Positions 1-64,000 of a stretch of 64,000 bases of DNA are shown here, piece by piece (the first letter of the stretch is position 1; each line of letters begins with the position of its first letter). The position numbers and the translations under genes were made by a program. Origin of the DNA: an uncultured Candidatus Saccharibacteria bacterium (GTDB lineage Bacteria > Patescibacteriota > Saccharimonadia > Saccharimonadales > JAGQNJ01); NCBI GenBank assembly GCA_964491925.1, contig CAZBGZ010000004.1, positions 23,529 to 87,528 on the forward strand, given 5' to 3'. The notes beneath the pieces are model-generated. The model was given only the letters and a program-made list of their open reading frames with translations. It was not told where the DNA came from and ran no database searches.

Positions 1-85
1 TAGTTTTGACGCCAAGTCGATTAAGTTTTTTAGAGAGAACAACTCCAACGCCTTTCAAAGACTCAACAGAATCACTTAACTCCAT
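1..85 (-). CDS. RecG-like DNA helicase, first 28 codons only (gene runs off the left edge)
   Basis: Minus-strand translation from ATG at 83-85: MELSDSVESLKGVGVVLSKKLNRLGVKT. The L-x-GVG...L-x2-LG-x-x-T leader resembles RecG N-termini. Too short to be sure. Confidence 0.3.
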   Translation of the reverse strand, partial: MELSDSVESLKGVGVVLSKKLNRLGVKT

Positions 86-100
86 AACCAACATTATAGA

Positions 101-892
101 TTACTTAGCTTTGCGAACGAGAAAAAAGACACTAGGACCAAAGTGAGTCTTGGCAAGGGTGGGCTGTAAGAACTTCTCTATATGCAACATAACTGCGTGC
201 GGAACGACTTTTTTTAAGGTGGTAGACCGCAAGTTAGAGACTGATAAAACTTTATCTACTTTTAGCCCGGCGTGAGCCAGCTGTTTTACCACTGTTTTAG
301 GATTGTGATTAACAAAAGCTATCTCGTCCTTGCCTTTGTTTTTGGCGCTTCGGATATCGACTGGTTGTGTTGGTAGTTTTTTGCCACGAATATAGTACTT
401 GAACTTGTTCCTGGCATGTGCGAAATTGGCCATTTCAAGTATCAAAAAACCGTCATCTGATAAAACACGGGCAAATTCAGCAAATTCAGCTTTTGGGTCT
501 GGCAAGTGGTGCATGACCCTAATAACCGTAATTAAGTCTAATTCTCCATCATCGAACTTTAACTGATCAGCCTGCATTAGTTTAAGATCAACTTTTGGGT
601 GTTCTTTCAAAAAGTCTTTGCCGATATCCAGCTGTTGTTGGCTTGGTTCGGCCAATGTTACCTTGTCAGCGTATTTTTCCAACATTATGCACAGTCGGCC
701 ATAACCACCACCGATGTCTACTGCATGCCTAAAATGGCGACCTTTTAAGAAACGCCGAATAGCTATTTTCTCTGAAGCATTCTCGTAATCACGCCCTTCC
801 CAATATTGCAGGTAATTATGGTTGGGATCATTATATTGATCGGCTTTTTTCGTTGATTTTTTTATTTTTGATTTGCTAGTTTTTTTAGTCAT
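101..892 (-). CDS. class I SAM-dependent methyltransferase
   Basis: 263-aa ORF. Glycine-rich SAM motif I VDIGGGYGRL, acidic residue after beta-2 (LAEPS), Lys-rich N-terminal tail. Confidence 0.8.
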   Translation of the reverse strand: MTKKTSKSKIKKSTKKADQYNDPNHNYLQYWEGRDYENASEKIAIRRFLKGRHFRHAVDIGGGYGRLCIMLEKYADKVTLAEPSQQQLDIGKDFLKEHPKVDLKLMQADQLKFDDGELDLITVIRVMHHLPDPKAEFAEFARVLSDDGFLILEMANFAHARNKFKYYIRGKKLPTQPVDIRSAKNKGKDEIAFVNHNPKTVVKQLAHAGLKVDKVLSVSNLRSTTLKKVVPHAVMLHIEKFLQPTLAKTHFGPSVFFLVRKAK

Positions 893-914
893 AGGATTAA
901 AAGTATAGCACGGG

Positions 915-2138
915 CTATTTTTCTATAATAGCAAAGTTATTTTTTCCACGTTTAACTAAATTTTTGCCTTTTTTGAAATCATTCCAAGAACTATCTATCT
1001 TTGCTCCGTTAATCGATATGCTACGTGCCTCAATTAATCGTTTAGCTTCGCTATTTGATTCAGCTAGACCCGCGTTTACTAGAGACTGGACAAGGTTGCC
1101 TTTATACGAAGTAGTCGGCAATTCTTGTGCAAGTTTTGACTTTTCTGATTCTGATAGTTCTAGAAAATCAGCCTTGCCGAAGAGTACCTCAGTTGTGCGT
1201 ACGACACTATCAACTTCGTCTATGCCGTGCACTAGTTTTGTTACTTCGTATGCTAGCTTCTTTTGAGCTATACGAGTCGCTTTGTCCTCATTGAATTCTT
1301 TAATTATTTGATCGATTTCTGGCTTGGACAGCTCTGTGAACACCTTCAGGTATCCTTCAACACCCTCGTCGTCTACGTTTAACCAGAATTGGTAAAACTT
1401 ATAAACGCTTGTTTTGGACGAGTTCAGCCACACTGCACCATCTTCTGACTTTCCGAATTTCTTACCAGTCGCTTTATTGATAATAAGCGGCAAAGTAATA
1501 ACATGTACCTCTTTCCCACGTGCTCGACGAATAAGATCGACTCCACTTAAACAATTGCCCCATTGGTCTGACCCTCCTAGTTGCAAAGTCACGCCATAAT
1601 TATCATAAAGATGCAGGTAATCAAGCCCCTGTAATATTGTGTAGCTAAACTCGGCGTAACTAATTCCAGCCCCTTCTTCCCCGATTCTTTTTGCAATATA
1701 GTCACGCTGCACAAGGGGGGTCATACTGAAGTGCTTACCGATGTCTCTGAGGAATTCAATCACTGTCAACTTCTTCGTCCAGTCGAGGTTATTGACTAGT
1801 TCAAATTTTTCTCCGCGAAAAACCCGCTTTATTTCCTCGGTCGCGTTGGCTACGTTGAGAGCAATTGTTTCCTCATCTTGTAAGGTTCTCTCTTTGTCTT
1901 TGCCGCCGGGGTCGCCTATTAGACTGGTTGAACCTCCAGCAAGTAAAATTGCTTTATAGCCATGGCGAATGAAAATCTTGTCAAACATCATAGCAGCCAA
2001 GTTGCCGATTGTCTGCGAGTCTGCAGAAGCATCGAAGCCATGATAGAAAGTTCTTTTCTTTTTATCTAAATCGCTTAAATCATTAAACGTTGTTTGATTA
2101 ATAAATCCGCGCCACTGTAATTCTTCTGATAGTGTCAT
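915..2138 (-). CDS. tyrS: tyrosyl-tRNA synthetase
   Basis: 407 aa. YHGFDASADSQTIGNL (degenerate HIGH region), KFGKS (KMSKS), C-terminal S4-like domain (RLIEARSISINGAKI). Confidence 0.93.
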   Translation of the reverse strand: MTLSEELQWRGFINQTTFNDLSDLDKKKRTFYHGFDASADSQTIGNLAAMMFDKIFIRHGYKAILLAGGSTSLIGDPGGKDKERTLQDEETIALNVANATEEIKRVFRGEKFELVNNLDWTKKLTVIEFLRDIGKHFSMTPLVQRDYIAKRIGEEGAGISYAEFSYTILQGLDYLHLYDNYGVTLQLGGSDQWGNCLSGVDLIRRARGKEVHVITLPLIINKATGKKFGKSEDGAVWLNSSKTSVYKFYQFWLNVDDEGVEGYLKVFTELSKPEIDQIIKEFNEDKATRIAQKKLAYEVTKLVHGIDEVDSVVRTTEVLFGKADFLELSESEKSKLAQELPTTSYKGNLVQSLVNAGLAESNSEAKRLIEARSISINGAKIDSSWNDFKKGKNLVKRGKNNFAIIEK

Positions 2139-2338
2139 AGTTATAATAATTATACCCTAGTGATCACTGTACCAAAAATTAGACAAAAACAACCGTTTAC
2201 CTGCCCTACATCGGCCCCAGCACACTGACGAAATTATGCGTAATTAGTTTCTTTTCGCTTATGGAAAAAATAATGGCAAGTCTGCTGTTGTATTTGCTAT
2301 AATATAACCTACATCTTAATGGAGACAGTAATACTTAT

Positions 2339-5332
2339 ATGAGCAACCCTAGGCGTGGTTCACGCGTTACAAAAAATTCTTTCACAACCAAGAGTGGCTC
2401 TGTGGTCAAACTAAACCGAAGCCTAGGCGACAGAATGAAAATCCGCGGCGACCAAAAAGCTAGACGTAAAGCCGAACGCTTAAACGGTATGCCAAAAGGG
2501 CGTACACAACGCTTCTTTTATCGCCTAAATCCTAAGCGCATGTACCACTACTGGTTTAGCCGCGAAGGCGGAATAATGGCCCTAAAAATTATGGGCATAT
2601 GTTTCATTGCAGGATTTTTGTTTTTTGTTGGATTATTCGCATTTTTCCGAAAAGATTTACCTAACCTTCGTGATATCAGTGGCAATAATATCGGTGGTAG
2701 TATCAGATACTACGACAGAACTGGAAAAACCTTGTTATGGGAAGACTATGACGCAGTCAAGAGGATCCCGGTACAAGATAAAGAGATCACTCAGGACATG
2801 CGTGACGCAACAGTTGCTATTGAAGATAAAGACTTTTATAAACATGGTGGATTTGACCCGAAAGGCATCACAAGAGCAACTTGGAATAATGCTTTCGGCG
2901 GCAGTACACAGGGCGGGTCTACAATCACACAGCAACTAGTAAAGTTAACCCAAAACTGGACCCAGGAAAGAACCATTAGCAGAAAAGTTAAAGAACTAAT
3001 TTTAGCCGTAGAACTAGAACGAAGTTACTCTAAAGATGAAATTTTGACTGGCTATTTGAACACGGCGCCGTATGGTGGTATCGAATATGGCGTAGAGGCA
3101 GCCTCTCGAGATTACTTTAATAAATCTGCAAAAAAACTAACCCTCGCCGAGGCGTCGATGTTGGCCGCAATTCCAAAATCACCAACGTTGCTATCACCTT
3201 ATAGTCCTAGCTTTAATAAACAAGCATTTCTTGGAAGACAGCACTACATCCTGGATCAGATGCAACACCAAGGAATGATCACAGAAAAAGAACGTGATGC
3301 TGCTAAAAAAGTTGATGTAGTCAAGAGCGTGAAGCCTAGACAGGCTAAATATAGCGGCATAAAAGCTCCTTGGTTTGTGATTACGGCCAAAGAACAATTA
3401 GAGAATCAGTTCGGTGCAAAAGTAGTTGCCAGAGGCGGTTGGCGAGTCACGACTACCTTAGACATAAAATTACAAGAGGAAGCAGAAAAACAGGTCAAAG
3501 CCGGTATCAACCAAGTTTATGCGCAGGGTGGTGACACCGCCGCCTTTGCTGCCGAAGACGTACCCACGGGTCAAATGGTGGCCTTGGTTGGTGGTGTAGA
3601 TTTCGGGAACAAAGAGTTTGGGCAGAATAATTACGCCAGATACAAGCTGCCTCCTGGGTCTAGCTTTAAACCCTATGATTATGTGTCACTGATTAACAGC
3701 AAAAATAATTTTGGCGCAGGTTCGGTCCTATACGACTCTCAGGGCCCACTAGAAGGCTACCCATGTACCCAGAAAGGCTTGCCACCACCAAGAGGCAATG
3801 GTAACTGTCTACAAGACTATGACTTTAGATATCCGGGAGCTATGACCGTTCGTTATGCCCTAGGAGGCTCTAGAAACGTACCTGCCATGAAAGCAATGCT
3901 TTTAACTGGCGTGGATAAGACAATAGAAACAGCTGAACGGCTCGGGCTAAAAAGTGGCTATAATTGTTATCAAGACGACGCATTAACAAAAGAAGGGCCT
4001 TGTTATGCTTCTTCATCTATTGGTGATGGTGCATATTTAAAACTAGACGAGCACGTACATGCTCAAAGTTCACTATCAAGAAATGGTTTGAACATACCCC
4101 AAACCTACATCTTAAAAATAGATGACTCCAATGATAAACCAGTCTATCAATGGAAAAAAGAAAAAGGCGACCAGGCAGTTCGTCCAGATGCTGCGTATAT
4201 TATCAATAATATTTTGTCTGATCCCAACGCCAGCTACTTCCCTGCAGGACGAAAGCCTCAAAGATTTGGTGACTGGAAGTTCGCCATGAAAACCGGAACG
4301 ACAAACGACGGCAAAGACGGTTGGATGACAGGATATTCAACAAAATACGCTGCCAGTGTCTGGGTCGGATACCACAACCGTAGGGTCCAAATGAGTGGCA
4401 CGATGGAAAACATGACTCAGCCCATTTGGCAGGGCTGGATGCAATCAGCACACACCGGCAAACCAGCCAAAGACTGGGTAAAGCCTAGTGGAGTTAAAAC
4501 AGCACCTGCTTACGTAATTAGAACTCATGTGGGTATCGGTTCCGTAGAGCCTAGCCCAAGCACCGATCTATACCCATCTTGGTACACGAACACTAAGAAA
4601 AAATCCACATCTAAGAAGACGATTGACAAAGTATCTAACAAACTCGCTACTAGTTGTACGCCACAAAGAGCCAGAAAAACACTCAGCGAAACTGATGCCT
4701 CTAGTTTCTCGGGAGACACATTCGTTGATGCCGGCGGCAATAACTCCAATCAGCAAGATGACGTACATAAATGTAGTGACAAAAAACCGAGTATTAGTTT
4801 GTCTGTTCAAAAATCGGGTAGTTCCTACAATTTGGTTGCAACAGTCAGCCAAGGAACTCACCCACTTTCTAGCACTAAATTCAAAGGAACGGTAACATTT
4901 GTTGTTGACGGAAAAGAAATCGCAGGCGGATCGTATAACATTAACAGTCCAGGCACCGTAACTTACAAGAACTACAAGCCTAACTTCTCGGGAACAAAAA
5001 CAGCAACAGCTACGATCGTAGATAGCGTTCTGTACGATGATAGCGACTCTAAAAGTATTACAGGGTCTGGTTCATCATCTAGCGCCTCATCCATTAGCAA
5101 CTTCCGAACAACCAACGAAAGCTCAAACACGATCACCCTAGCATGGAATGCTTACTCTGGCGCAACCGGATATACTTTAACAATAGTATCAGGTGGCAGT
5201 GGGTCATGTACTTCTTCGGGCACGAATGGGGTATGTACCGGTCTAACTAGTAGCACAAACTACAGCTTCAAAGTTAAAGCCAACGGTGTTAGCGGCAATC
5301 CATCGGCAACCACCTCAGGCACAACGGACTAG
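2339..5332 (+). CDS. class A penicillin-binding protein (GT51 glycosyltransferase + transpeptidase) with C-terminal Ig/FN3-like repeats
   Basis: 997 aa. GT51 motifs EDKDFYKHGGFD and GGSTITQQL. Transpeptidase SSFKP (SxxK), SRN, KTGTT. TM helix after an ~80-aa basic tail. FN3-like end (ITLAWNAYSGATGYTL...YSFKVKA). Confidence 0.92.
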   Translation: MSNPRRGSRVTKNSFTTKSGSVVKLNRSLGDRMKIRGDQKARRKAERLNGMPKGRTQRFFYRLNPKRMYHYWFSREGGIMALKIMGICFIAGFLFFVGLFAFFRKDLPNLRDISGNNIGGSIRYYDRTGKTLLWEDYDAVKRIPVQDKEITQDMRDATVAIEDKDFYKHGGFDPKGITRATWNNAFGGSTQGGSTITQQLVKLTQNWTQERTISRKVKELILAVELERSYSKDEILTGYLNTAPYGGIEYGVEAASRDYFNKSAKKLTLAEASMLAAIPKSPTLLSPYSPSFNKQAFLGRQHYILDQMQHQGMITEKERDAAKKVDVVKSVKPRQAKYSGIKAPWFVITAKEQLENQFGAKVVARGGWRVTTTLDIKLQEEAEKQVKAGINQVYAQGGDTAAFAAEDVPTGQMVALVGGVDFGNKEFGQNNYARYKLPPGSSFKPYDYVSLINSKNNFGAGSVLYDSQGPLEGYPCTQKGLPPPRGNGNCLQDYDFRYPGAMTVRYALGGSRNVPAMKAMLLTGVDKTIETAERLGLKSGYNCYQDDALTKEGPCYASSSIGDGAYLKLDEHVHAQSSLSRNGLNIPQTYILKIDDSNDKPVYQWKKEKGDQAVRPDAAYIINNILSDPNASYFPAGRKPQRFGDWKFAMKTGTTNDGKDGWMTGYSTKYAASVWVGYHNRRVQMSGTMENMTQPIWQGWMQSAHTGKPAKDWVKPSGVKTAPAYVIRTHVGIGSVEPSPSTDLYPSWYTNTKKKSTSKKTIDKVSNKLATSCTPQRARKTLSETDASSFSGDTFVDAGGNNSNQQDDVHKCSDKKPSISLSVQKSGSSYNLVATVSQGTHPLSSTKFKGTVTFVVDGKEIAGGSYNINSPGTVTYKNYKPNFSGTKTATATIVDSVLYDDSDSKSITGSGSSSSASSISNFRTTNESSNTITLAWNAYSGATGYTLTIVSGGSGSCTSSGTNGVCTGLTSSTNYSFKVKANGVSGNPSATTSGTTD

Positions 5333-5348: not shown

Positions 5349-6692
5349 TCAAGTCTCCAAAAACGTATTAAGAGCCGTTCGAATGTCTTTTGCTGGAAAC
5401 AGTAGCTTTTCTTTCTTTTTAGAATCTCGTGGCCTAGGGCCTATAACAACTTCGAACCCCATCTTCTTTGCCTCTGTAATCCGTTTTTCTATGTAGGGTG
5501 CATGCCTAATTTCGCCAGATAATCCGACCTCACCAAAGACTACAGCGTTTTGTTTTAATTTTAATCCCTTGCTAGCCGACCCTATAGCCATACAAATAGC
5601 TAGGTCTGCCGCCGGTTCGGTGACACGAATGCCACCGACAATGTTTATGTATATATCTTTGTCCGAGAGATTTAGCTTTGTTCGTCGTTCTAACATTGCG
5701 ATTAATAGATTCAAACGGTTAATATCAATGCCGCTTGCCGTCCGTTTAGGGTACCCGTAGCTTGTTTTATTGACCAAGGCCTGTACCTCTACCAAAATCG
5801 GTCTACTGCCCTCCATAGTAGCCAGCACGACCGAACCATCAGTCACTTGTCTCTCTGCCAATAATGCCTTTGATGGATTGTCTACTATCTTTAGTCCCTC
5901 GTCGGCCATCTCTAAGATTGCTACTTCATTAGTTGATCCGAAACGATTCTTGACCCCCCGCAAAATTTTAAACCCGCCATAACGGTCTCCTTCTAGCTGT
6001 AAAACGACATCTACGATATGTTCCAGAAGCTTAGGGCCAGCAATTGATCCTTCTTTCGTCACATGCCCGACTAAAATCAGTGCGGTGTTGGACTCTTTGG
6101 CTGCTTGCATTAGCATTGTTGTACAGCTAGTTATTTGGCTGACCGAGCCGGCAGAACTAGTTAACCTATCGGTAGCTATGGTCTGGATAGAATCGACGAC
6201 CACTGCATCATACTCATTGCCAGAAATACTGGCTTCAATGTCTTCAACTCTTGTGCTAGCAGCCAATTGCAGGTTGGTATTAGTCGAGCTGAGACGTTTG
6301 GCTCTTAAACCAATCTGATGAACGGATTCTTCGCCACTGATGTATAGAACTTTTTTAGTTTTAGCAACGGCATTTGCTAGTTGCAACAAAAGCGTGCTTT
6401 TCCCAATTCCAGGTTCTCCTGCCAATAACATTACGCTACCAGGGACTATTCCGCCACCGAGAACGGTATCAATATCGGTAATTTCACTGGGCATTCGTTT
6501 TTCATTACTTCTAGCGGCTTTGTCGCTGGTTATCGGACTCAGTTTTTTGCCAGTTGTGCCCGTCCTGACACTGGTTGACGTAATTACTTCTTCTAGAGTG
6601 TTCCACTCGCCACATGTTTGGCATTTTCCGCCCCAAGTAATAGACTCGGCGCCACAATTGCTACAAACATATTTTTTTTGACTTTTAGCCAT
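5349..6692 (-). CDS. radA: DNA repair protein RadA
   Basis: 447 aa. N-terminal Zn finger CSNCGAE...CQTCGEWNT, Walker A GEPGIGKST, KNRFG motif, Lon-like C-terminal domain. Confidence 0.95.
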   Translation of the reverse strand: MAKSQKKYVCSNCGAESITWGGKCQTCGEWNTLEEVITSTSVRTGTTGKKLSPITSDKAARSNEKRMPSEITDIDTVLGGGIVPGSVMLLAGEPGIGKSTLLLQLANAVAKTKKVLYISGEESVHQIGLRAKRLSSTNTNLQLAASTRVEDIEASISGNEYDAVVVDSIQTIATDRLTSSAGSVSQITSCTTMLMQAAKESNTALILVGHVTKEGSIAGPKLLEHIVDVVLQLEGDRYGGFKILRGVKNRFGSTNEVAILEMADEGLKIVDNPSKALLAERQVTDGSVVLATMEGSRPILVEVQALVNKTSYGYPKRTASGIDINRLNLLIAMLERRTKLNLSDKDIYINIVGGIRVTEPAADLAICMAIGSASKGLKLKQNAVVFGEVGLSGEIRHAPYIEKRITEAKKMGFEVVIGPRPRDSKKKEKLLFPAKDIRTALNTFLET

Positions 6693-6715
6693 AATACTAA
6701 ACAGTATACTCGACT

Positions 6716-7693
6716 TTACAGCGACTGTGGCCGGCTATCGATAGCTTTTGCTAACTCTTGAGCTTCTAGTGCTATTTCGTTGCGCTTGGACACAAGTTCG
6801 TTATGCCTGGCTATTAAACCTTTCGTCATACTAACAAGCTCATTATATTCACCAACTGACTGATTAAATGTAGAAACTCGGCTGTTAAATTCGCTCGGTT
6901 CTGCCGAGGACCTCAATTTTTCTAGCTCTGTCTGTTCTTGTCGGAGTACAACCACTTTTTTATTCATAATAGTCTCGTTTGACTCAATTTCTTCTTTTAA
7001 TGCTTTTAGTTGCAGATCATATTGATCAACTGCAATCCGTCGTTTTGTAAACTCTGATTCGTATTGCTCTGAAAATGACACAACGTTTTCACGATCACTA
7101 AAGTAACGGCTATAATACGCCTCCAAATCTGGTGACAGATCTCTTGATTCTGTTCCCAGAATAGAATGCAGCTCGTTTGGTACTACACTAGGGTCCTGTT
7201 TTTTATACTGCTCTATTGTTTCAGACAATCGCTTATCTTTGTTTTTCTTGTATTCGTTCGCGAGCATTTTATCAACCCGCTCTCTATCGCTAGGATTTAA
7301 CCTTTCGTAAGCGACATGAAGCATTTCGTGTGCGGCTGTGACCTCCAGAACACCATCTAATCGACTGTCTTTGATGTTATACAAGTAAATGTCTCCGTAT
7401 ACTCCACGATTACTGACGTAGCATCCCAGAATTATTGATAATTCGTTAAAGTTACAGTATTTATTGAACTCTGACTTACCGTAAATGTTCGGATGTGAAA
7501 CATAGAACAGCTTCTTACCTTCGTCTGTCATTGTGGTACGTTTAGCCAGTCCTGCAACAGATGCGGGGGCAGAATAATCTCGTAACCTATACCAGTCCGA
7601 TATGTCCTGGCGAAAGAGCAAGCCAGCGGCTATAACCAACATAGTCACCAGAGGCAGAACATACCTAAAACGTCTCGTGGAACTATTTTCCAT
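6716..7693 (-). CDS. membrane-anchored HExxH protein (putative Zn metalloprotease fold) with C-terminal coiled coil
   Basis: The ORF track starts at GTG 7699. I prefer ATG 7693 (MENSSTRRF...) because TATAAT lies 7 nt upstream. One N-terminal TM helix, AAHEMLHVAYE (HExxH), heptad-like Glu/Lys-rich tail. Confidence 0.6.
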   Translation of the reverse strand: MENSSTRRFRYVLPLVTMLVIAAGLLFRQDISDWYRLRDYSAPASVAGLAKRTTMTDEGKKLFYVSHPNIYGKSEFNKYCNFNELSIILGCYVSNRGVYGDIYLYNIKDSRLDGVLEVTAAHEMLHVAYERLNPSDRERVDKMLANEYKKNKDKRLSETIEQYKKQDPSVVPNELHSILGTESRDLSPDLEAYYSRYFSDRENVVSFSEQYESEFTKRRIAVDQYDLQLKALKEEIESNETIMNKKVVVLRQEQTELEKLRSSAEPSEFNSRVSTFNQSVGEYNELVSMTKGLIARHNELVSKRNEIALEAQELAKAIDSRPQSL

Positions 7694-7726
7694 AACCACT
7701 ATTATATCTGTATTAGGACAAACTGA

Positions 7727-10207
7727 CTATTCAGTAACGACAGCGTAGTTCAGATTTTTCTTTTTGGCTGACACTTCTATGATGTCGCCTTTTCTATAGC
7801 TTTCTTTTAACAACTCGTCAGAGATGTAATCTTCGAGCGTATCTTGGAGTAATCTTCGCATGGGTCGAACACCATTCAGTGAGTCGTATCCATTTTCTAG
7901 CATGTACTGTTTTGCTGCTGTTGTAAGCTTGATGCCGAGGCCGTGCTTTACTAGCCTATCTTTCAGCTCTTGAACTTGTAAATCCAAAATTTTTAAAATG
8001 TCGTTTTTGGTTAATGCTCGGAAAACTATGGTTTTATCTATTCGGTTAATTAGCTCTGGTCGCAGTAGTTTTTTTAGCTCTTCGTGCACTTTATCTTTGT
8101 TAATCTCGTGCAATTTGTCCAAATCTTTCAGGTCTTTGCTGTCGGTGGCAGAAAAGCCCAGATTGACTTCTTTTTGCAAGCGGTCTGCACCAATGTTACT
8201 GGTCATTATCACGATAGTGTTGGTAAAGTCGATTTTTCGTCCCTTTGCATCAGTTAAATGTCCGTCTTCTAAAATTTGCAGCAGCACGTTGAAAACTTCT
8301 GGATGAGCTTTTTCTATTTCGTCGAATAAAACTAAACTGTGTGGTTGGCGTCGAATCTTGTCTGTCAATTGGCCTCCGTCATCATAGCCAACATAGCCTG
8401 CGGGCGCACCAACTAGTCTGGCAACATTGTGGTGTTCGCTGAATTCACTCATGTCTATTTTTACTAATGAATCTTCTGACCCATAGAATTCTCTAGCCAA
8501 AACCCTGGCCAGCTCGGTTTTCCCAACGCCTGTAGGTCCCAGGAATACGAATGACCCGACTGGTCGTTTGCCACTTCCGACACCAGACCTACTGCGTCGC
8601 ACTGCCTTAGCTACAGCTGAAACAGCCTCGTCTTGTCCAATCACATACTTGGAAAGTGTTTTTTCTAGATTGATTAGATATTTTGCCTCTGCTCGAATAA
8701 CTTTCTTAACTGGTACACCGGTCATTCTCGCTACTGTTTCAGCGACATCGTCGGTTTGCATGACTATTTTTTTGGCCTTTTTTTCTTCTGCTTGTAGTTT
8801 TTTAAGCTCTTCATGTATCTGACTAGTTCGCTGTTTGTGTTTTGCAGCCAAAGCGTAGTCTTCTTTATCGACCGCATCTTCTGTACGAACTTCTACCAAT
8901 TTTAATTCCTTTTGGAGTTTTCTGACTTCTGGTGGAGTACGCCCCTTATCCAGCCTTAAGTGTGCTGCTGTTTCGTCAATTAAATCTATTGCTTTGTCTG
9001 GCATAAAACGATCATTGATATAACGCTTTGCTAGCGCAACCGTATCTTCGATGATCTCGTCACTGATAGTCACGCCATGAAAACTCTCGTAATGCTTCCT
9101 AAGGCCTTTTAGAATAGCTATCGTTTCAGTAATGTTTGTTTCTGGCACTTGGACAGGCTGTAACCTACGCTCCAGTGCTGCATCTTTTTCGATGTGTTTT
9201 GTGTATTCATTAGTTGTTGTTGCGCCGATTAGTTGGATTTTACCCCTAGCAAGAGCAGGCTTTAAGATATTACCAGCGTCCATTGACCCTTCGGCCGCGC
9301 CAGCCCCAACAATTAGGTGTAGCTCGTCGATGAAAATAATAATATTATTACTACTTTCAAGTTCTGCCATAACTTTCTTTAAACGTTCCTCAAACTCACC
9401 GCGGTACTTAGTGCCGGCTATCATGCCGGCAAGATCCAACATCATAATTCTCTTGTCAAGTAGCGCGTCAGGGACGTCTTCGTTCACTATTCTTTGCGCC
9501 AAACCTTCCACGATTGCGGTTTTTCCTACACCTGGCTCACCAATTAGTACTGGATTATTTTTTGTTCTACGGTTCAAAATTGTGATTACGCGTCGAATCT
9601 GGGCTTCGCGTCCAACGACAGGGTCTAATTTGTTATCTCTGGCTAATACAGTCAGATCCGTGCCAAAAAAGTCTAGGGCTGTTTTTTTGGTCTTTTTGGT
9701 ACGTTTTTTTGCCGCGCCGTTGCTTGACCCGCCTTCTTCGTATTGTTGGCGATTCAAGAACTGTTCTAGTTCAGTGTTGATAGCATCGATACTAACACTC
9801 ATATCTCGGAGTAGAACGGTAGCACGGGCATTCTTTTGGCTGAGGATACTGTATAAAATATGCTCTGTTCCGCAAAACTCCTGGTTGAATTCTTGTGCAA
9901 TATCGTAGGCCATTTTTAGAGTCAATTTGGCTGTCTCAGACAATCCTTTGGCGCCCATGTTTATAACAATTGTCTTAGGGTTGAGGTTTAGTGCCAACCT
10001 TGCTTTATCTAATGTTATGCCAGCGTCAGTCAAAACTTTTGCTCCAATAGAGCCTTCTTGCGCTAATACACCTAGCAACAGGTGCTCTGTTCCAACAAAC
10101 GGGCTGCCAGCAGTACGTGCGATAGCATCCGCATGCCGTAGTGACTGTAATGCGTTTTCAGTTAGGTGATTCAAGAACTCTTGGAAATCTGCGTTATTTG
10201 GCATCAT
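7727..10207 (-). CDS. clpC: ATP-dependent Clp protease ATP-binding subunit ClpC (class I AAA+)
   Basis: 826 aa. Duplicated Clp-N repeat, Walker A GEPGVGKT and GPTGVGKT, short middle domain (ClpC rather than ClpB). Confidence 0.92.
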   Translation of the reverse strand: MMPNNADFQEFLNHLTENALQSLRHADAIARTAGSPFVGTEHLLLGVLAQEGSIGAKVLTDAGITLDKARLALNLNPKTIVINMGAKGLSETAKLTLKMAYDIAQEFNQEFCGTEHILYSILSQKNARATVLLRDMSVSIDAINTELEQFLNRQQYEEGGSSNGAAKKRTKKTKKTALDFFGTDLTVLARDNKLDPVVGREAQIRRVITILNRRTKNNPVLIGEPGVGKTAIVEGLAQRIVNEDVPDALLDKRIMMLDLAGMIAGTKYRGEFEERLKKVMAELESSNNIIIFIDELHLIVGAGAAEGSMDAGNILKPALARGKIQLIGATTTNEYTKHIEKDAALERRLQPVQVPETNITETIAILKGLRKHYESFHGVTISDEIIEDTVALAKRYINDRFMPDKAIDLIDETAAHLRLDKGRTPPEVRKLQKELKLVEVRTEDAVDKEDYALAAKHKQRTSQIHEELKKLQAEEKKAKKIVMQTDDVAETVARMTGVPVKKVIRAEAKYLINLEKTLSKYVIGQDEAVSAVAKAVRRSRSGVGSGKRPVGSFVFLGPTGVGKTELARVLAREFYGSEDSLVKIDMSEFSEHHNVARLVGAPAGYVGYDDGGQLTDKIRRQPHSLVLFDEIEKAHPEVFNVLLQILEDGHLTDAKGRKIDFTNTIVIMTSNIGADRLQKEVNLGFSATDSKDLKDLDKLHEINKDKVHEELKKLLRPELINRIDKTIVFRALTKNDILKILDLQVQELKDRLVKHGLGIKLTTAAKQYMLENGYDSLNGVRPMRRLLQDTLEDYISDELLKESYRKGDIIEVSAKKKNLNYAVVTE

Positions 10208-10255
10208 ATTGGTATTTTACCCCTTAATGGCGATTTTATATATCGTACGAATAAC

Positions 10256-10336: not shown

Positions 10337-11116
10337 TCAAGCAACACTGGCTAAGAATCTATCGTCAAGGAATTGCACAACTTTTTCGGCCTGATCGGGC
10401 ATTAAAAGTTCCATCGAACGAACGTCGAATTCCCGACGAGCAAAGTTTCTTGCACTTCGTGAGCTATCGGACATTGTTGCCTCAAGTACGAACTGCAACT
10501 CGGTTAACTCCTCAAATGGAACAACCCCCTCTACTCCTTCGTTCATTGCTAGATCAGCAGCCCAAGCACCTGCATGGCTAGCTATATGATCATCGATTTG
10601 GTCAAGCCCGGATGTTGCCCAAATAGTATCGGATTTACCTAGCAAAATTCCACCAGCGGCTCTCATAAGACCCGGGAACTCTGGATTAGCGCCATCTGGG
10701 CTAAAGCTGGACAACGTTTGATCTATTCTTATAGTCTCGGCTTTTCCAAAAGCATTCATTCTATATCGGGGCATATATTGTTTGAAAATTGGGTCAATTT
10801 CTTCAACTCCTAGTCCGGTAGGGGTATGAGGGTCATCGGACCTAATCCCGTTATAAAAATCTAATACAGCGTTACTCTTGGGACCCCTTAAGCCTATGTT
10901 AACCATCGTAAATGGGTTCAGCGTCCTGGATCTATTATTGTGACCAGCAACTATTGCCAACCCCAAATCTCCACGTTTTTTCGCATATCGTGTTTCTCGC
11001 CAACCACCACCGGCGTATATATTCTGCGCTGCTTGTTCTGTGGCTATAGCAACTGATAGAGCTACGACTGGCTCAGTCTCTAGATAACTCGCAAGATCAG
11101 CTTTATGTTTACTCAT
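10337..11116 (-). CDS. hypothetical protein (orphan, 259 aa); weak GlcG/DUF336-like motifs
   Basis: Clean 259-aa ORF with its own promoter. Weak resemblance to GlcG/HbpS family: LGLAIVAGHNN and GGILLGKSDTIWATSGLDQIDDHIASHAG versus the GG-h-P...IGAxGVSG...D motif. Not verified. Confidence 0.6.
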   Translation of the reverse strand: MSKHKADLASYLETEPVVALSVAIATEQAAQNIYAGGGWRETRYAKKRGDLGLAIVAGHNNRSRTLNPFTMVNIGLRGPKSNAVLDFYNGIRSDDPHTPTGLGVEEIDPIFKQYMPRYRMNAFGKAETIRIDQTLSSFSPDGANPEFPGLMRAAGGILLGKSDTIWATSGLDQIDDHIASHAGAWAADLAMNEGVEGVVPFEELTELQFVLEATMSDSSRSARNFARREFDVRSMELLMPDQAEKVVQFLDDRFLASVA

Positions 11117-11123
11117 TGACGTT

Positions 11124-11152
11124 ATTATATCATTTTTTGACCGGAGTGTCTA
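11124..11152 (-). promoter_or_regulatory. promoter TAGACA-17-TATAAT, 7 nt before ATG 11116 (leaderless-type)
   Basis: rc of 11147-11152 = TAGACA (overlaps the nusA TAG stop), 17-nt spacer, rc of 11124-11129 = TATAAT, then 7 nt (aacgtca) to the ATG. No Shine-Dalgarno. Confidence 0.55.
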
Positions 11153-12352: not shown

Positions 12353-12444
12353 AATATTTCTCCTTTATCCTGAGTTTGTCGAAGGATTTACCCTGTGTTA
12401 GTCGAAGGGTTTCCTTAAAATGCGTCAGAATTTTTATTAAAAAA

Positions 12445-13068: not shown

Positions 13069-13076
13069 TTCACTAA

Positions 13077-13105: not shown

Positions 13106-13124
13106 TTACTATAACTCCCTCACC

Positions 13125-51173: not shown

Positions 51174-51470
51174 CTATGGTGCGATGGGCGTGCCATTTTC
51201 GGACATAGTCTGAATACAGGCGAGTGCTTTGTCGTAGTAGGCATCAACAACAGAATTCCCAACCACTTCTATGGGTAATCGTTTAATGGGTTCGTCTGGA
51301 CCAGGGAACATCGATATATCTCTGCCTTGCGCTACCCTGAGTAGAACCACCGAATTGTCCATTGCTGTTCGAGCGCAATATGTTTTAGCCTCCCCCTTTT
51401 TAAACTCTACGGGGACCCCACGGTACTCGCAACCGTCGCAATAAGGTATAGGTAAACGCGTCTCATTCAT
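51174..51470 (-). CDS. hypothetical protein (orphan, 98 aa) with N-terminal CxxC
   Basis: MNETRLPIPYCDGCEYRG... plus two more Cys. TTGATG-17-TATCAT sits 6 nt before the ATG. Confidence 0.5.
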   Translation of the reverse strand: MNETRLPIPYCDGCEYRGVPVEFKKGEAKTYCARTAMDNSVVLLRVAQGRDISMFPGPDEPIKRLPIEVVGNSVVDAYYDKALACIQTMSENGTPIAP

Positions 51471-51583
51471 AAAAATATGATATCATATTTTCAAGCATAC
51501 ATCAACTATGCAGTATTTCCCCAACTTGTAGTAGGTTAGAAATGGAACGCTCGCCGCAGTAATGTGCCACCGTCGAATAATGA

Positions 51584-57246: not shown

Positions 57247-57695
57247 AGCTTAACCTCACAACGAGTATCTATGTAGTACCCGTTTTTTTTGCCTTCACTG
57301 TTCAACCAAATACGTTCGGGGGTGGCTGTGAATATTCTGGTAGGGGCATCCCCTGTAGTGGTATCTTCGGTCAACTGAAAAAGTTTAGCGCGTTGGTTAT
57401 ATAGAGCAAGTGCGCTTTTTAGTTCTTCCCCCTCTTCTAATATTCTTGCTTTTGCTTCCATGTAAACGCCTGCGGCTTCTTTTTCGGATGCATTCGGGTT
57501 AAACATCGTAATAAACACTCTGTTGTCTCGGTCTAAATTCTGCGAATGCACACTTTCTGCATCCGTCCACCAATAGATATTACTATTATTATCAAACACA
57601 AAAAAAACTGGGCTTGCCCAAGGCGAACCGTCATTACACACCGTTGAAAGTGTGCAAAATATCGTTGAGTCTAGAATTTGCATTACTTTGTTCAT
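57243..57695 (-). CDS. pyridoxamine 5'-phosphate oxidase-like FMN-binding split-barrel protein
   Basis: 150 aa. CTLSTVCNDGSPWASPVFFVFD...IYWWTD pattern typical of the PNPOx-like family. Confidence 0.7.
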   Translation of the reverse strand: MNKVMQILDSTIFCTLSTVCNDGSPWASPVFFVFDNNSNIYWWTDAESVHSQNLDRDNRVFITMFNPNASEKEAAGVYMEAKARILEEGEELKSALALYNQRAKLFQLTEDTTTGDAPTRIFTATPERIWLNSEGKKNGYYIDTRCEVKL

Positions 57696-58258
57696 TTTTC
57701 TATCTCCTCTAGCAATTCGGGGAATTGCATTCGTCTGTCATCAAAGAAATGTCCATACTCATGAAACTGTTTATATTTCACGCCACGTATCTTTTCTTTC
57801 AGTATTTGTGCGCTCTTTTTCACACTTTCGCCATCATCATCCGAATTAAAAATTGTAACCCCGGCCGTTCGCTTAACTAAATCAGGGTCGATGGTAAATT
57901 CAAAAAAATCGCCAGTATCGAATTTCTTATCTGGATCGATCCAGGGCGCTACCAAAACGACCTTGCCCACTGAAATGTCTTTATGTTCACTTAGCCAGCG
58001 TGCTAAGAAACCGCCGCCACAACTATGGCCGACCAATATTGTCTCTGGGCTAATATCGTAACGTTCAAATTCTTTTTGCCATGTAGGGTAATCGGCTATC
58101 CAGCCATTGGGGACTTCTGGCGTTTGCGTCGGGATTTCGCGCACAACAAGTTGTTTCTGAAGCCACGGTAACCAGTAATAGTTACTGAACGAAGGAAAGT
58201 TAACATCATAAAAGTGGTCTTTGCTGGGTTTCCCGTGTAGGATTATTGCATTTTTCAT
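57692..58258 (-). CDS. YdeN/RBBP9-type serine hydrolase (alpha/beta fold)
   Basis: 188 aa. ILHG..., nucleophile elbow LVGHSCGG, late Asp and His (DDDGESV, EYGHF). Confidence 0.75.
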   Translation of the reverse strand: MKNAIILHGKPSKDHFYDVNFPSFSNYYWLPWLQKQLVVREIPTQTPEVPNGWIADYPTWQKEFERYDISPETILVGHSCGGGFLARWLSEHKDISVGKVVLVAPWIDPDKKFDTGDFFEFTIDPDLVKRTAGVTIFNSDDDGESVKKSAQILKEKIRGVKYKQFHEYGHFFDDRRMQFPELLEEIEK

Positions 58259-59330: not shown

Positions 59331-60367
59331 GAGAATTGCCTCAAAAAGTCTAATTTACCAGATTCAAAGTGTCGGACGTCTTCGATATTGGATTTCATCA
59401 TAACTAACCGATCGATTCCGCCGCCCCAGGCAAAGCCGGTATATATATCAGGGTTAATGTCAGCCATTTTCAGCACGTTTGGGTGGATCATTCCACAGCC
59501 AAGCAGCTCAATCCAACCAGATTGCGAGCACACACTACAGCCTTTTTTCTTGCAAAATGGGCAACTAAGAGCAAACTCAAAACTAGGCTCTGTGAACGGA
59601 AAATAGAAAGGCTGTGTCTTTACCTCTATATCCTGATGGTAGTATTCCTGCAAAAAAGTCTTTAGTGTGGCTATTAGGTTGCCAGCGTTCATGCCTTTAT
59701 CTACAAAAATTCCTTCGTGTTGGTAAAAGGTATGCTCGTGCCGAGCGTCCAAGTCTTCATTACGAAACACTCTATCAGGGACCAAAACGGCAATTGGGCG
59801 GCCGTTTTCTAAATTTGATTTGTACTTTTTCAATAGTCTGTTTTGCATGGTACTAGTATGCGCCGGTGCGATTAATCCATCTGTGGTCATAAAAGTGTCA
59901 TAGTCGTCACGTGCTGGGTGTCCTTTAGGGAAATTTAGACTATCAAACATATGATAATCATCATCAAGCAGCCTGGACTGTTCTACATTGAAACCCATTC
60001 TATAGAAAATGTCAGAGATTTGTTCTATCTCAATCATAAGTGGGTGCTTGCTGCCGTTTTGCGCGGGCAGCAACGACGGTTTTTTAGCGTTAACATCGAA
60101 TGGTGCCGTAACATCAATGGGGTCAAGTTTTTCACTGTCATCTGACGCATCAGCGACCAACACTGTCAGTTCGGCTTTCAGCTGGTTTAATTCTTTGCCG
60201 AAACTAGCCCTTTCGTCAGGCTTTAACAGAGGTATTTCAGCCGCCAAAGCCTTCAGCTCAGGTGCGCGCAAAACAGAAGCTTTATTTTCAACCTTTTCTA
60301 GACGTCTTTGCAATGCCTCGGCCACATCCCCAATTTTCTTATGCTTATAGCTCATACTTATAGTCAT
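59327..60367 (-). CDS. pheS: phenylalanyl-tRNA synthetase alpha subunit
   Basis: 346 aa. Class II motifs (HPARDDYDTF, FRNEDLDARHEHTFYQHEG, GWAWGGGIDRL-like GFAWGGGIDRL). Confidence 0.94.
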   Translation of the reverse strand: MTISMSYKHKKIGDVAEALQRRLEKVENKASVLRAPELKALAAEIPLLKPDERASFGKELNQLKAELTVLVADASDDSEKLDPIDVTAPFDVNAKKPSLLPAQNGSKHPLMIEIEQISDIFYRMGFNVEQSRLLDDDYHMFDSLNFPKGHPARDDYDTFMTTDGLIAPAHTSTMQNRLLKKYKSNLENGRPIAVLVPDRVFRNEDLDARHEHTFYQHEGIFVDKGMNAGNLIATLKTFLQEYYHQDIEVKTQPFYFPFTEPSFEFALSCPFCKKKGCSVCSQSGWIELLGCGMIHPNVLKMADINPDIYTGFAWGGGIDRLVMMKSNIEDVRHFESGKLDFLRQFS

Positions 60368-60401
60368 TATATACTAACTTGCCCCTCGTTCGCCTCTTAA
60401 A

Positions 60402-61753: not shown

Positions 61754-61781
61754 TTGGCAATAGCGTTTTATGGTCTATACT
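61754..61781 (+). promoter_or_regulatory. promoter TTGGCA-16-TATACT, 7 nt before yajQ ATG (leaderless-type)
   Basis: TTGGCA 61754-61759, TATACT 61776-61781, then ggaaagt and ATG 61789. No Shine-Dalgarno. Confidence 0.5.
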
Positions 61782-61788
61782 GGAAAGT

Positions 61789-62286
61789 ATGGCAAGCTTT
61801 TCTTTTGATGTAGTTAGTGAATTCGATAAGGCCGAGATGATTAATGTCTTTGACCAGACACAGCGAGAACTCTCAAACCGTTATGATTTTAAGGGGACTT
61901 CGGCTGCTGTCGAGTGGCTAAATAGTGATAAAACAGGGTTCAAGGTTATGGGTGATAGTCAGTATCAGCTAGATGCGATTGCAGACATTATTCGTAAAAA
62001 ACTGGCTGCGCGTAGCCAAAGCCAAAAGATTATTGATGTTTCAAAAGAACCCCTGACAACAAACCTGAAGATGCATTGGGAAGTTCCGTTTCAGAGTGGT
62101 TTGGACCAAGAAAAAGCCAAAAAAATAACAAAATTGATCCGTGATGAATTACCAAAAGTAAAAACTCAAATTCAAGGCGAAGAGGTACGTGTAACCAGCC
62201 AGAAAAAAGACGAACTACAAGCAGCCATGCAATTATTAAAATCACAAGATTTCGACTTTCCGCTATCCTTTACAAACTTCCGCTAA
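61789..62286 (+). CDS. yajQ: YajQ-family (UPF0234) nucleotide/c-di-GMP-binding protein
   Basis: 165 aa. MASFSFDVVSEFDKAEMINVFDQTQRELSNRYDFKG is the typical YajQ N-terminus. Confidence 0.9.
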   Translation: MASFSFDVVSEFDKAEMINVFDQTQRELSNRYDFKGTSAAVEWLNSDKTGFKVMGDSQYQLDAIADIIRKKLAARSQSQKIIDVSKEPLTTNLKMHWEVPFQSGLDQEKAKKITKLIRDELPKVKTQIQGEEVRVTSQKKDELQAAMQLLKSQDFDFPLSFTNFR

Positions 62287-62547: not shown

Positions 62548-62581
62548 CTATTTTCGAAGCACTCTGGAAAACTGCAAAACC

Positions 62582-62602
62582 CGTCACAGAATATCTGTGA
62601 CG
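62582..62602 (-). terminator. intrinsic terminator after the amidohydrolase gene
   Basis: Perfect 9-bp stem CGTCACAGA/TCTGTGACG with a 3-nt loop, followed on the minus strand by GGTTTTGCAGTTTTCC. Confidence 0.6.
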
Positions 62603-62615
62603 ATAATGCACAATT

Positions 62616-63854
62616 CTACCTAGGGCACTTTACTAGATGACGTAGGCTAACTTGGTAGTTTCTGGTTTTCGTGCCGTTTTGGCCTCTCCTAAATTCTGAC
62701 TCGCCCGAGGCTGCATGCACGACCCTGCCTGCAAGATGGTACACAGCGCCGATTTGTTCGAGATGCCCGAACATGTTTTGCCCGTACTGCGGGTTAATAG
62801 TACGTTCGGCATCAGCAATACTATCGAATTTACCGCCAATATCAAATACTGCACTCGTACCATCGTCCATCGATATATTGAATATTTCTCGCGGAGTAAC
62901 AACTATTTTTTGATACAAATCGTCCAGAGCAATTCTGCCTTCGGAAACTGCGCCTAATAGCAAGGGTATCATTACGGTATGGTTTGTTACCCCAAACGCC
63001 GGGTTCTCTGCTTCTTTTTCCTCCAATCGATGCGGGGCACAGTCACTAGCAAATACGTCAATGTAGTCCATATTATCCCATAAAAACTGTACGTCTTCAG
63101 CCGACTTTAACGAAGGCTTCATGCAGCCAAAACCTCCAATTTTCGCTACCTCGGCTGCGGTTGCAAATAGGTGGTGGGGAGTAACCTCGCACGTTACCCG
63201 CATACCATTTTCTTTGGCTTCTATTACTGACTCAAGCTCTTCTCGAGACGAAACATGCGCAATATGAATTGGGATCTCGTTGCCATTTGGCTTGCCAGCA
63301 ATCGCAGCAAGGATCGTTCGGACGTTGCCATCCTCAGCATGAACAATAGTCGGCTTCTCTGGGTAAAATTTATTCCATTCATCTATTAGCTGTGAGGCAT
63401 GATCTATGGACACATTCATACCGCCCGTGGACAAATCAACCCACAGTTTTAGCCCTGACGCATTTGTGCCACCGGTGTAAAAGAGGCGCCTGGCCTTATA
63501 AGCAACCACTTCGCGTCCGTTGTCCGACAAAACTTCTTTTTTATCTATGCCTAGGTGAATACCAGCCAAGGTTCTCGATTGAGAACTAATAGCTGTTTCC
63601 ATCGCCCCTACCCTATCAGGGTTTGAAATCGGATATTGGACTTGTTCTATTTGACCTGTTTTGTCGTTTATGACCCGCCTTGCCTCGTTTGGCATAGCCA
63701 GCATCACAGTTATGCCTGACTCAAGCATTGCCTCGGTATATGCTTCCAGTCCGGCTTTGCCATCTGGAAGCGGATCAAACACTCTGGGATGAGCATGTAC
63801 GTCTATCGGACCCGGCGTCATAGTAATCAAATCGCCCGCTACTTCTAACCCCAT
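62616..63854 (-). CDS. dihydroorotase-like cyclic amidohydrolase
   Basis: IDVHAHPR (HxH), ASDCAPH (compare SDHAPH). Start ATG 63854 (MGLEVAG...) 5 nt after GGAGG; the ORF track gives TTG 63905. Confidence 0.8.
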   Translation of the reverse strand: MGLEVAGDLITMTPGPIDVHAHPRVFDPLPDGKAGLEAYTEAMLESGITVMLAMPNEARRVINDKTGQIEQVQYPISNPDRVGAMETAISSQSRTLAGIHLGIDKKEVLSDNGREVVAYKARRLFYTGGTNASGLKLWVDLSTGGMNVSIDHASQLIDEWNKFYPEKPTIVHAEDGNVRTILAAIAGKPNGNEIPIHIAHVSSREELESVIEAKENGMRVTCEVTPHHLFATAAEVAKIGGFGCMKPSLKSAEDVQFLWDNMDYIDVFASDCAPHRLEEKEAENPAFGVTNHTVMIPLLLGAVSEGRIALDDLYQKIVVTPREIFNISMDDGTSAVFDIGGKFDSIADAERTINPQYGQNMFGHLEQIGAVYHLAGRVVHAASGESEFRRGQNGTKTRNYQVSLRHLVKCPR

Positions 63855-63941
63855 AATTCCTCCGTATTTCATCAAAACTATATTCGATATATTTTCCAAA
63901 AGCAAGCAAGTCCTTTTTTTGACACTGTATACTATATGCTA

Positions 63942-64000
63942 ATGGCTAACGACGAAAAAAATACTGATTTGATGAATAAAGCCAAGGAGGTTTTGGCTAA
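63942..64000 (+). CDS. start of an unidentified ORF running off the right edge
   Basis: ATG 63942: MANDEKNTDLMNKAKEVLA... Only 19 codons visible. Confidence 0.25.
   Translation, partial: MANDEKNTDLMNKAKEVLA

Follow-up and report, generated by a model that had tools for sequence, protein, structure and literature searches.

In the genomes that make up group C of the GeneMarkS-2 classification, a Pribnow box lies 6–8 nt from the starts of operon-first genes and 25–50% of transcripts are leaderless; the group is frequent in Actinobacteria (90%) and Deinococcus-Thermus (97%), and leaderless mRNAs have been experimentally mapped in Deinococcus deserti (PMC6028130, and work cited therein). Here, we describe a similar arrangement in a 64-kb piece of a Candidatus Saccharibacteria genome (TM7; Patescibacteria, or candidate phyla radiation (CPR); 43% GC), contig CAZBGZ010000004.1, hereafter called the window, which holds about 62 genes. 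At many of these genes, a −10 hexamer stands so close to the start codon that transcription would begin at the start codon or a few nucleotides ahead of it, while other genes carry Shine-Dalgarno (SD) sites.

The window shares several features with the group C genomes of Mycobacterium tuberculosis, M. smegmatis, Corynebacterium, Streptomyces and D. deserti. The box lies 6–8 nt from operon-first starts, roughly a quarter to a half of the transcription units are affected, SD sites persist at the other genes, those inside operons included, and a weak −35 element goes with a −10 element of the TAnnnT type; the D. deserti control described below peaks at the same gap. It differs in its taxon, since Saccharibacteria and Gottesmanbacteria-like CPR are unnamed in the main text of PMC6028130, in its AT-rich genome, where −10 elements come near to full TATAAT, TATACT or TACAAT, and in the packing of promoters into gaps of 12–33 nt that overlap upstream stop codons. 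Furthermore, the actinobacterial and Deinococcus cases were mapped experimentally, whereas the present one is predicted from sequence. At the sequence level all defining features of group C are present, and a match of the window to this group is supported; it is a new taxon for a known architecture.

Three other systems invite comparison. Sigma-70 promoters with an extended −10 (TGn) need no −35 element; galP1 of E. coli is an example, and such promoters are common in Firmicutes and mycobacteria. The start-proximal boxes described here resemble them in having TGn directly upstream in 38–51% of cases and in their weak −35 elements. Classical extended −10 promoters produce leadered mRNAs, whereas here the transcript would begin at the start codon. 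Archaeal leaderless genes (group D; Haloferax, Sulfolobus) likewise show a fixed promoter-start distance, a high leaderless fraction and SD sites at internal genes, but their TATA/BRE elements lie ~26 nt upstream and serve a different transcription machinery, while here a bacterial −10 element sits at ~7 nt. Finally, in the Bacteroidota-type genomes of group B many genes also lack an SD site, yet in group B the motif stands before every gene, whether operon-internal or not, while the hexamer described here is absent from coupled genes and SD sites are clearly used.

A literature search returned no report linking leaderless mRNAs to Saccharibacteria, TM7, Patescibacteria or CPR. A 2025 promoter survey includes 188 transcription start sites (TSS) of N. 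lyticus TM7x, inferred from RNA-seq, and notes only that the −10-to-TSS distance is variable (PMC12641261), while a TM7x transcriptome preprint is without TSS or untranslated-region analysis. A survey of CPR ribosomes found a short bS1 and an anti-SD sequence retained outside one Parcubacteria subgroup, and does not discuss leaderless initiation (PMC9297842). As the NCBI pipeline uses GeneMarkS-2+, the pattern may have been modelled implicitly and yet never described.

Start-proximal −10 hexamers in the window

The gap N is counted throughout as the number of nucleotides between the end of the −10 hexamer and the start codon. The original prediction held that 15 or more genes of the window carry a −10 hexamer 6–10 nt before the start. 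On re-reading the upstream sequences, the start codons, hexamers, coordinates and gaps of all 15 listed genes proved exact, and about ten further sites were found, bringing the total to about 25 of the ~62 genes. Gaps are 6–8 nt at 14 of these 25 sites and 9–11 nt at the other 11.

Enrichment was measured on start codons chosen blind to the motif, taking the first ATG of greedily selected, non-overlapping open reading frames (ORFs) of at least 100 aa and ignoring upstream sequence. Under a strict criterion (at most one mismatch to TATAAT, A2 and T6 fixed, gap 6–10), 14 of 58 genes carry the hexamer. Dinucleotide-preserving shuffles of the 40-nt upstream regions gave a mean of 2.9 and a maximum of 9, and shuffles confined to the proximal 20 nt a mean of 3.65 and a maximum of 11; in neither case did any of 2000 shuffles reach 14. 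The enrichment thus survives the AT-matched null model that had been named as a possible refutation. Among the non-start ATGs of the window (n = 1928), 2.4% are preceded by such a hexamer, which predicts 1.4 genes (binomial p ~1e-10).

The positional profile across Saccharibacteria

A search of species-representative genomes with the RadA protein of the window yielded 80 loci, the best match (L001) being 97% identical. About 63 of them are metagenome-assembled genomes (MAGs) of Saccharibacteria/Saccharimonadales, with RadA ~53–78% identical apart from L001; the remainder come from Bacillota, Bacteroidota and other phyla, together with one Gottesmanbacteria locus (L080). The loci preserve the gene order around radA well, which provides both a larger sample and orthologous upstream regions. 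The Saccharibacteria set comprises 63 loci with 802 ORFs, and the control set 15 loci with 183 ORFs (14 non-CPR loci and L080). Two contigs are filed elsewhere, L005 (DATHYB010000136.1) under Limnocylindrales (Chloroflexota) and L007 (DATIIZ010000012.1) under Babeliales (Dependentiae); their RadA is 65–67% identical to that of the window, their syntenic neighbours are of the Saccharibacteria type, and both contigs appear to be Saccharibacteria sequence that was mis-binned or mislabelled.

Across the 63 Saccharibacteria loci, the distance from −10-like hexamer to start codon shows a sharp peak at gaps 6–8. The counts are 55, 53 and 44 at N6, N7 and N8, falling to 23, 23 and 14 at N9, N10 and N11, against ~9–12 at each of N0–5 and ~8 at each of N12–44. 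A hexamer at N5–11 precedes 26.7% of Saccharibacteria genes, where 7.4% would be expected from the flanks, and the 15 control loci are flat (8.7% observed, 8.3% expected). Depending on the stringency of the criterion, the excess above background corresponds to 17–23% of all Saccharibacteria ORFs. Plasmid 3 of Deinococcus deserti (120 annotated genes) served as a positive control and gave a TAnnnT peak at N6 (12.5% vs 3.3%).

A check that presupposes no motif gave the same picture. Comparing hexamers in the −22 to −1 region with those in −65 to −44 brought out two classes in Saccharibacteria, one of promoter type (TATACT, 86 vs 13 genes; TATAAT, 69 vs 21) and one of SD type (AAAGGA, 54 vs 3; AAGGAG, 42 vs 2), while SD-type hexamers alone were enriched in the controls. 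The family-weighted box fraction is 0.22, a value that families with just one or two members also show, and compares with 0.08 in controls, so the signal is not due to a few orthologous families.

Conservation at orthologous genes

For individual genes, the start codon of the window was projected onto each orthologue by protein alignment, the nearest start codon was taken blind to the upstream sequence, and a −10 box was scored at gaps of 5–11. The box is found ahead of the conserved MAK start of radA in 53 of 62 orthologues, and likewise at pepN (29 of 35, with the start aligned to 13143 and not 13125), the methyltransferase gene (22 of 29), rnhB (25 of 34), rplS (18 of 28) and the HExxH protein gene (32 of 53). 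The surrounding sequence cannot be aligned and RadA itself is only ~53–78% identical, so that gene-specific selection acts on the box. Lower counts were obtained for tyrS (19 of 42, many of the others having an SD-like motif and a TATAAT farther upstream) and for the clpC-like gene (13 of 52, with SD-like motifs in most of the upstream regions listed); at these two genes, the initiation mode alternates between species.

Other genes of the window do not share the box. It was found in 0 of 47 orthologues of nusA, where AAGGA/GGAG-type SD sites precede nearly all of those listed, in 3 of 31 orthologues of the coupled UPF0102 gene (17364), and in 4 of 53 orthologues of the PBP gene (2339). In many of the loci L002–L063, a GGTCGGATTTTTTCATG-like sequence stands ~15–35 nt upstream of the nusA start, just ahead of the SD site; a terminator T-tract is one candidate identity for it, the 3′ end of an RNA gene missing from the annotation another.

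Promoter-like features of the box and the use of Shine-Dalgarno sites

When the start-proximal boxes are aligned on the hexamer, T1, A2 and T6 are near-invariant, position −14 is G in 64% and position −15 is T in 47%. The complete TGn extension occurs in 38% of the start-proximal boxes, whereas its frequency over all −10-like hexamers at the same loci is 7.4%. A −35 element is strong at few sites only, namely the 44-aa ORF (TTGACA), the 259-aa orphan (TAGACA), the 220-aa orphan (TTGACT) and yajQ (TTGGCA); its overall weakness fits promoters of the extended −10 kind.

The box and the SD site are close to mutually exclusive, an SD 4-mer accompanying the box in only 1% of genes. Box frequency depends on the gap to the preceding gene on the same strand, being 4–7% (background) where genes overlap or lie at most 10 nt apart and 42–46% at gaps of 11–40 nt, and SD-only genes reach 39% among overlapping genes. 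Within the window, ~27 genes are led by AAGGAG-, GGAG- or GAGG-type sites, and of the 15 genes coupled to their upstream neighbour by overlap or close adjacency none has a box and most have an SD site. SD use by other genes of the window, including nusA, gap, ppa and the pilin genes, had also been claimed and is evident in their upstream sequences. All three of the following examples lie on the minus strand: nusA (12350–12365) has AAGGAG at 12360–12365, 7 nt from its ATG at 12352; gap, encoding GAPDH (47037–47051), has AAGGAG 6 nt from its ATG at 47039; and an operon-internal gene with an ATGA stop/start overlap (57693–57708), one of the 15 coupled genes, has AGGAG 8 nt from its ATG at 57695. 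ATG makes up 93% of the leaderless-type starts and 82% of the SD-led ones. Because the TGn extension lies outside the search criterion, the box excludes the SD site, and coupled genes lack it, the signal is best read as one for RNA polymerase and not for the ribosome.

The PBP/transglycosylase gene (2339–5332, plus strand; upstream region 2295–2341) represents another promoter class, in which a TGcTATAAT-type promoter and a GGAG-type SD site define a short, SD-bearing leader: TGCTATAAT stands ~35 nt upstream and is followed by GGAG and then the ATG. A good share of its orthologues have a similar combination of promoter, ~25–35 nt upstream, and GGAG-type SD site; a TATAAT or TATACT box is recognisable within 40 nt in 20 of the 46 orthologues listed.

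Proposed mechanism and alternative explanations

We consider it likely that extended −10 sigma-70 promoters in these genomes initiate transcription at the start codon or within a few nucleotides of it, alongside SD-led initiation. About 40% of the window genes, or around half of those that are not translationally coupled, would be preceded by a sigma-70-type promoter, chiefly in the form of an extended −10 element (TGnTAnnnT) whose −35 partner is weak or missing. A gap of 6–8 puts the A of the ATG 7–9 nt past the −10 element, which is where RNA polymerase starts; transcription would then begin with the first base of the start codon (A or G), or 1–5 nt earlier where the gap is 9–11, and the resulting mRNA would have no room for an SD site. 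By analogy with Mycobacterium and Deinococcus, in which initiation at a 5′-terminal AUG is experimentally established, the ribosome and initiator tRNA would recognize the terminal AUG or GUG directly, and AAGGAG-type SD sites would serve operon-internal genes as well as a second set of first genes. The original prediction was that leaderless promoters and SD sites coexist, and every one of its sequence-level consequences that we tested was borne out; the leaderless status itself is what we infer from them.

Several points weigh against this reading. The −35 signal is weak, with at most two mismatches at 16–18 nt spacing in 23% of cases against 12–16% at control spacings. A pyrimidine at −1 followed by a purine at +1 was considered as evidence for the TSS and dropped, as it is not class-specific: T at −1 occurs in 52% of leaderless-type, 41% of SD-led and 49% of other starts, which is not a significant difference. 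The gene sets are simple ORF calls rather than curated annotations, and the taxonomy of the metagenome loci is based solely on RadA similarity. A literature search found no usable 5′ ends, ribosome profiling or N-terminal peptides for any Saccharibacterium. The gaps of 9–11 nt, found at 5 of the 15 originally listed sites and 11 of all 25, predict leaders of 1–5 nt. Lastly, the same-strand gaps of 12–33 nt that hold some of the promoters leave no room for a terminator, so read-through transcripts probably carry the genes behind them as well, and on these another mode of initiation would be needed. Leaderless initiation is less securely inferred for the N9–11 sites and for genes that are perhaps read through from upstream.

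The last two of these points give some weight to the strongest of the rival explanations, in which the promoters are real but the mRNAs either carry short leaders (1–5 nt or more) or are mostly polycistronic read-through products, leaderless translation being a minority route. Besides the 11 long gaps and the nine window promoters in gaps without terminator room, the clade-wide counts at N9–N11, which are ~2–3 times the baseline, are compatible with it. The clade-wide peak, however, lies at N6–8, the preferred start distance for the A of the ATG; the genes with a box have no SD site that could be used on a read-through transcript; and Mycobacterium studies by convention still call an mRNA leaderless when its leader is no longer than 5 nt. 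We therefore regard this explanation as unlikely.

Much less probable is that the hexamer acts in translation on a leadered mRNA, as a non-SD, A/U-rich ribosome-binding or low-structure element like those of GeneMarkS-2 group B genomes, for example Bacteroidota. Its distance from the start does resemble that of an SD site, and CPR ribosomes are unusual, with a short bS1 and missing proteins (PMC9297842). Against this, the near-invariant T1, A2 and T6 and the fivefold enrichment of TGn are sigma-70 contacts without known ribosomal meaning, some sites have a full TTGACA-17-TATAAT promoter, and the motif is at background in the overlapping and adjacent operon-internal genes, where a ribosome-binding site is most needed.

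No more credible is a misassignment of start codons, with the true starts downstream and the boxes being ordinary promoters with normal leaders. Starts other than the 5′-most were indeed picked for pepN (13143), the HExxH protein gene (7693) and the recG-like gene (85), and the orphan genes lie beyond homology checks. Yet the first Pfam domain begins only 1–13 residues past the start at ten genes, at residue 2 in rnhB, 4 in spoU, rpe and rplS, 5 in yajQ, 6 in trmB, 8 in galU and radA, 10 in uvrB and 14 in pepN (counted from 13143), and the N-termini of orthologues align at the same residue. For tyrS, uvrB, rplS and rnhB, the next candidate starts are 27–46 codons downstream, within or beyond the start of the first Pfam match; that of uvrB, 36 codons on, falls within ResIII (residues 10–85) and would truncate the conserved N-terminal region. 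Given these domain positions and distant next starts, misassignment cannot account for the pattern.

A chance product of AT-rich intergenic DNA, to which the 62% A+T of the upstream regions, the 10–15% background matches under loose criteria and some loose matches in AT-rich Bacteroidota control loci might point, is refuted by the shuffles, by a peak restricted to N6–8 with flat flanks in the same regions, by the flat profile of the non-CPR loci and by conservation of the box at particular genes alone.

Beyond Saccharibacteria

The Gottesmanbacteria locus of the control set (L080) shows the same pattern at 4–5 of its 10 genes. A metagenome scan with its RadA yielded 80 contigs (744 kb, RadA 66–100% identical, 613 ORFs), which we call Gottesmanbacteria-like on the basis of RadA similarity alone. 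Their counts are 50, 42 and 39 at N6, N7 and N8 over a baseline of ~7, and 28.1% of genes have a box where 8.6% would be expected. TGn precedes 67 of 131 boxes (51%), and SD 4-mers stand ahead of 11% of genes. As judged from these upstream regions, the architecture occurs in at least two distant CPR lineages. A wider claim can be made only tentatively, and we lean slightly away from it: extended −10 promoters that abut the start codon, and with them mRNAs that lack a leader or nearly so, might be a general CPR trait and not a peculiarity of this genome, one that involves at least a fifth of genes in two or more deeply separated classes, Saccharimonadia and Gottesmanbacteria-like Microgenomates, and has apparently gone unreported.

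An altered SD sequence (GGCGG) in the Gottesmanbacteria-like loci, considered after GAAAGGCGG was found to be enriched there, was rejected, as ~30 of its 33 matches belong to one orthologous gene. Among contigs L082–L160, a conserved GAAAGGCGGTAnnAATGA stands 8–9 nt before the start of one ~385-aa gene in ~30 contigs and is specific to that gene.

Probable promoter sites in the window

For each site, we give the window positions spanned by promoter and start codon, followed by the strand. The recG-like gene (83–98, minus) has TATAAT at 93–98, a gap of 7 and its ATG at 85–83; an in-frame ATG at 94–92 overlaps the hexamer, which makes the second ATG the candidate leaderless start, and the orthologue in L001 is a 680-aa RecG-type helicase. 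The gene for an S-adenosylmethionine-dependent (SAM) methyltransferase (890–910, minus) has TGcTATACT at 902–910, a gap of 9 and ATG at 892, the distance to the tyrS stop being only 22 nt. Two genes on the same strand have gaps of 10, tyrS (2136–2154; TATAAT 2149–2154, ATG 2138) and radA (6690–6708; TATACT 6703–6708, ATG 6692). They are followed by the HExxH protein gene (7691–7729, minus; TAGTCA 7724–7729, 17-nt spacer, TATAAT 7701–7706, gap 7, ATG 7693), the newly added gene for a clpC-like AAA+ chaperone (10205–10219, minus; TAAAAT 10214–10219, gap 6, ATG 10207) and the 259-aa orphan (11114–11152, minus; TAGACA 11147–11152, 17-nt spacer, TGaTATAAT 11124–11132, gap 7, ATG 11116).

The 44-aa ORF (13066–13105, minus) has a perfect sigma-70 consensus promoter, with TTGACA at 13100–13105, a 17-nt spacer, TATAAT at 13077–13082, a gap of 8 and ATG at 13068. 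It forms a divergent leaderless-type pair (13066–13145, 74 bp between the start codons) with pepN, which encodes an M1 aminopeptidase (13126–13145, plus; TGgTACAAT 13126–13134, gap 8) and whose ATG at 13143 is the second of its ORF. The 44-aa ORF (13068 to ~12934, minus) overlaps a 131-aa ORF (12964–12569) by ~30 nt in another frame, and the two may be one frameshifted gene; the 44-aa ORF is perhaps no independent gene. The 131-aa ORF has a GS...DxD pattern reminiscent of nucleotidyltransferases; neither ORF has a Pfam match or a homologue in the 80 related loci. The 44-aa ORF was also considered as a possible N-terminal part of RimP, or of some conserved gene preceding nusA, but tblastn against the 80 loci and Pfam gave no match.

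Between 16 and 23 kb, the sites lie on both strands. The 299-aa orphan (16111–16129, plus) has TGcTATTAT at 16111–16119, a gap of 7 and ATG at 16127, and rnhB (17925–17942, minus) has TGcTATGAT at 17934–17942, a gap of 6 and ATG at 17927. A second divergent pair (18529–18599, 65 bp between the start codons) consists of rplS, encoding L19 (18529–18546, minus; TAAAAT 18541–18546, gap 9, ATG 18531), and the newly added malic enzyme gene (18581–18599, plus; TGtTATTAT 18581–18589, gap 7, ATG 18597). The L19 protein itself (17992–18531, minus) is 179 aa long, with the L19 domain at residues 4–111 and a C-terminal extension of ~65 aa. The 220-aa orphan (20389–20430, minus) combines TTGACT at 20425–20430 and a 17-nt spacer with TAAAGT at 20402–20407, a gap of 10 and ATG at 20391. 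Its −10 element is weak; a TATAAT without mismatch occurs 24 nt upstream. Two newly added genes follow on the plus strand, for a SpoU methyltransferase (22230–22244; TAGAAT 22230–22235, gap 6, ATG 22242) and a CAP-domain protein (22746–22763; TGtTACAAT 22746–22754, gap 6, ATG 22761).

In the remainder of the window, minus-strand sites precede the newly added galU-like nucleotidyltransferase gene (29004–29022; TGaTACACT 29014–29022, gap 7, ATG 29006), the newly added gatC (32616–32638; TGaTATACT 32630–32638, gap 11, ATG 32618), for which a leader of ~4 nt is expected, and uvrB (35736–35753; TGcTACAAT 35745–35753, gap 6), which starts with GTG at 35738. The newly added trmB-like regulator gene (44916–44933, minus; TGaTACTAT 44925–44933, gap 6, ATG 44918) lies directly behind the newly added rpe (45564–45582, minus; TACAAT 45577–45582, gap 10, ATG 45566), whose TGA stop (44931–44933) doubles as the TGn of the trmB extended −10 element. 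The last four sites are those of a newly added MFS transporter gene (47124–47145, plus; TGaTACAAT 47124–47132, gap 10, ATG 47143), the 98-aa orphan (51468–51485, minus; TGaTATCAT 51477–51485, gap 6, ATG 51470), the newly added pheS (60353–60371, minus; TATAAT 60366–60371, gap 10, ATG 60355) and yajQ, a DUF520 gene (61754–61791, plus; TTGGCA 61754–61759, 16-nt spacer, TATACT 61776–61781, gap 7, ATG 61789). A tRNA scan and an Rfam scan at the gathering threshold over the whole window returned no tRNA gene and no family.

Many of these promoters are tightly packed. Nine of the leaderless-type promoters lie in same-strand gaps of 12–33 nt, where their upstream half overlaps the 3′ end of the preceding gene and sometimes its stop codon. 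The original prediction noted two TAG stops within −35 hexamers, and both are present, that of the clpC-like gene (7727–7729) in TAGTCA and that of nusA (11150–11152) in TAGACA, each at 17-nt spacing from a TATAAT. The further claim that the best promoters belong to orphan genes holds in the window, where the −35 elements of orphans have 0–2 mismatches (mean 1.2, n = 5) and those of conserved genes 3.15 on average (n = 20; Mann-Whitney p = 0.001); in the larger sets it is reduced to a weak trend (p = 0.02 in Saccharibacteria and 0.15 in the Gottesmanbacteria-like contigs).

Implications for CPR biology

A large part of bacterial diversity belongs to CPR/Patescibacteria, in which gene expression has hardly been studied. 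We consider the value of the finding to be moderate and to lie in the reach of leaderless initiation, the annotation of CPR start codons and the design of expression tools. In annotation, start-proximal boxes would guide the choice of starts in CPR MAGs, as in the window for pepN (13143 and not 13125), the CAP-domain protein gene (22761 and not 22755) and the HExxH protein gene (7693 and not 7699). They would also help in designing promoters and translation signals for the recently developed genetic systems of Saccharibacteria, where the tuf and rpsJ promoters are borrowed at present (PMC10633639). The window further illustrates genome compaction, with promoters fitted into gaps of 12–33 nt and stop codons reused as promoter bases.

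Leaderless mRNAs are abundant in Actinobacteria, the hosts of cultivated Saccharibacteria, and a link between the hosts and the trait of their Saccharibacteria is suggestive but speculative. For the organisms themselves, the finding would extend to CPR an initiation mode known mainly from Actinobacteria, Deinococcus-Thermus and archaea, at a fifth to two-fifths of genes. If it were indeed a general CPR trait, it would tie CPR to the leaderless-rich Terrabacteria (Actinobacteria, Deinococcota), mean that SD-centred gene callers have systematically misplaced start codons in annotated CPR genomes, and bear on how reduced ribosomes initiate translation.

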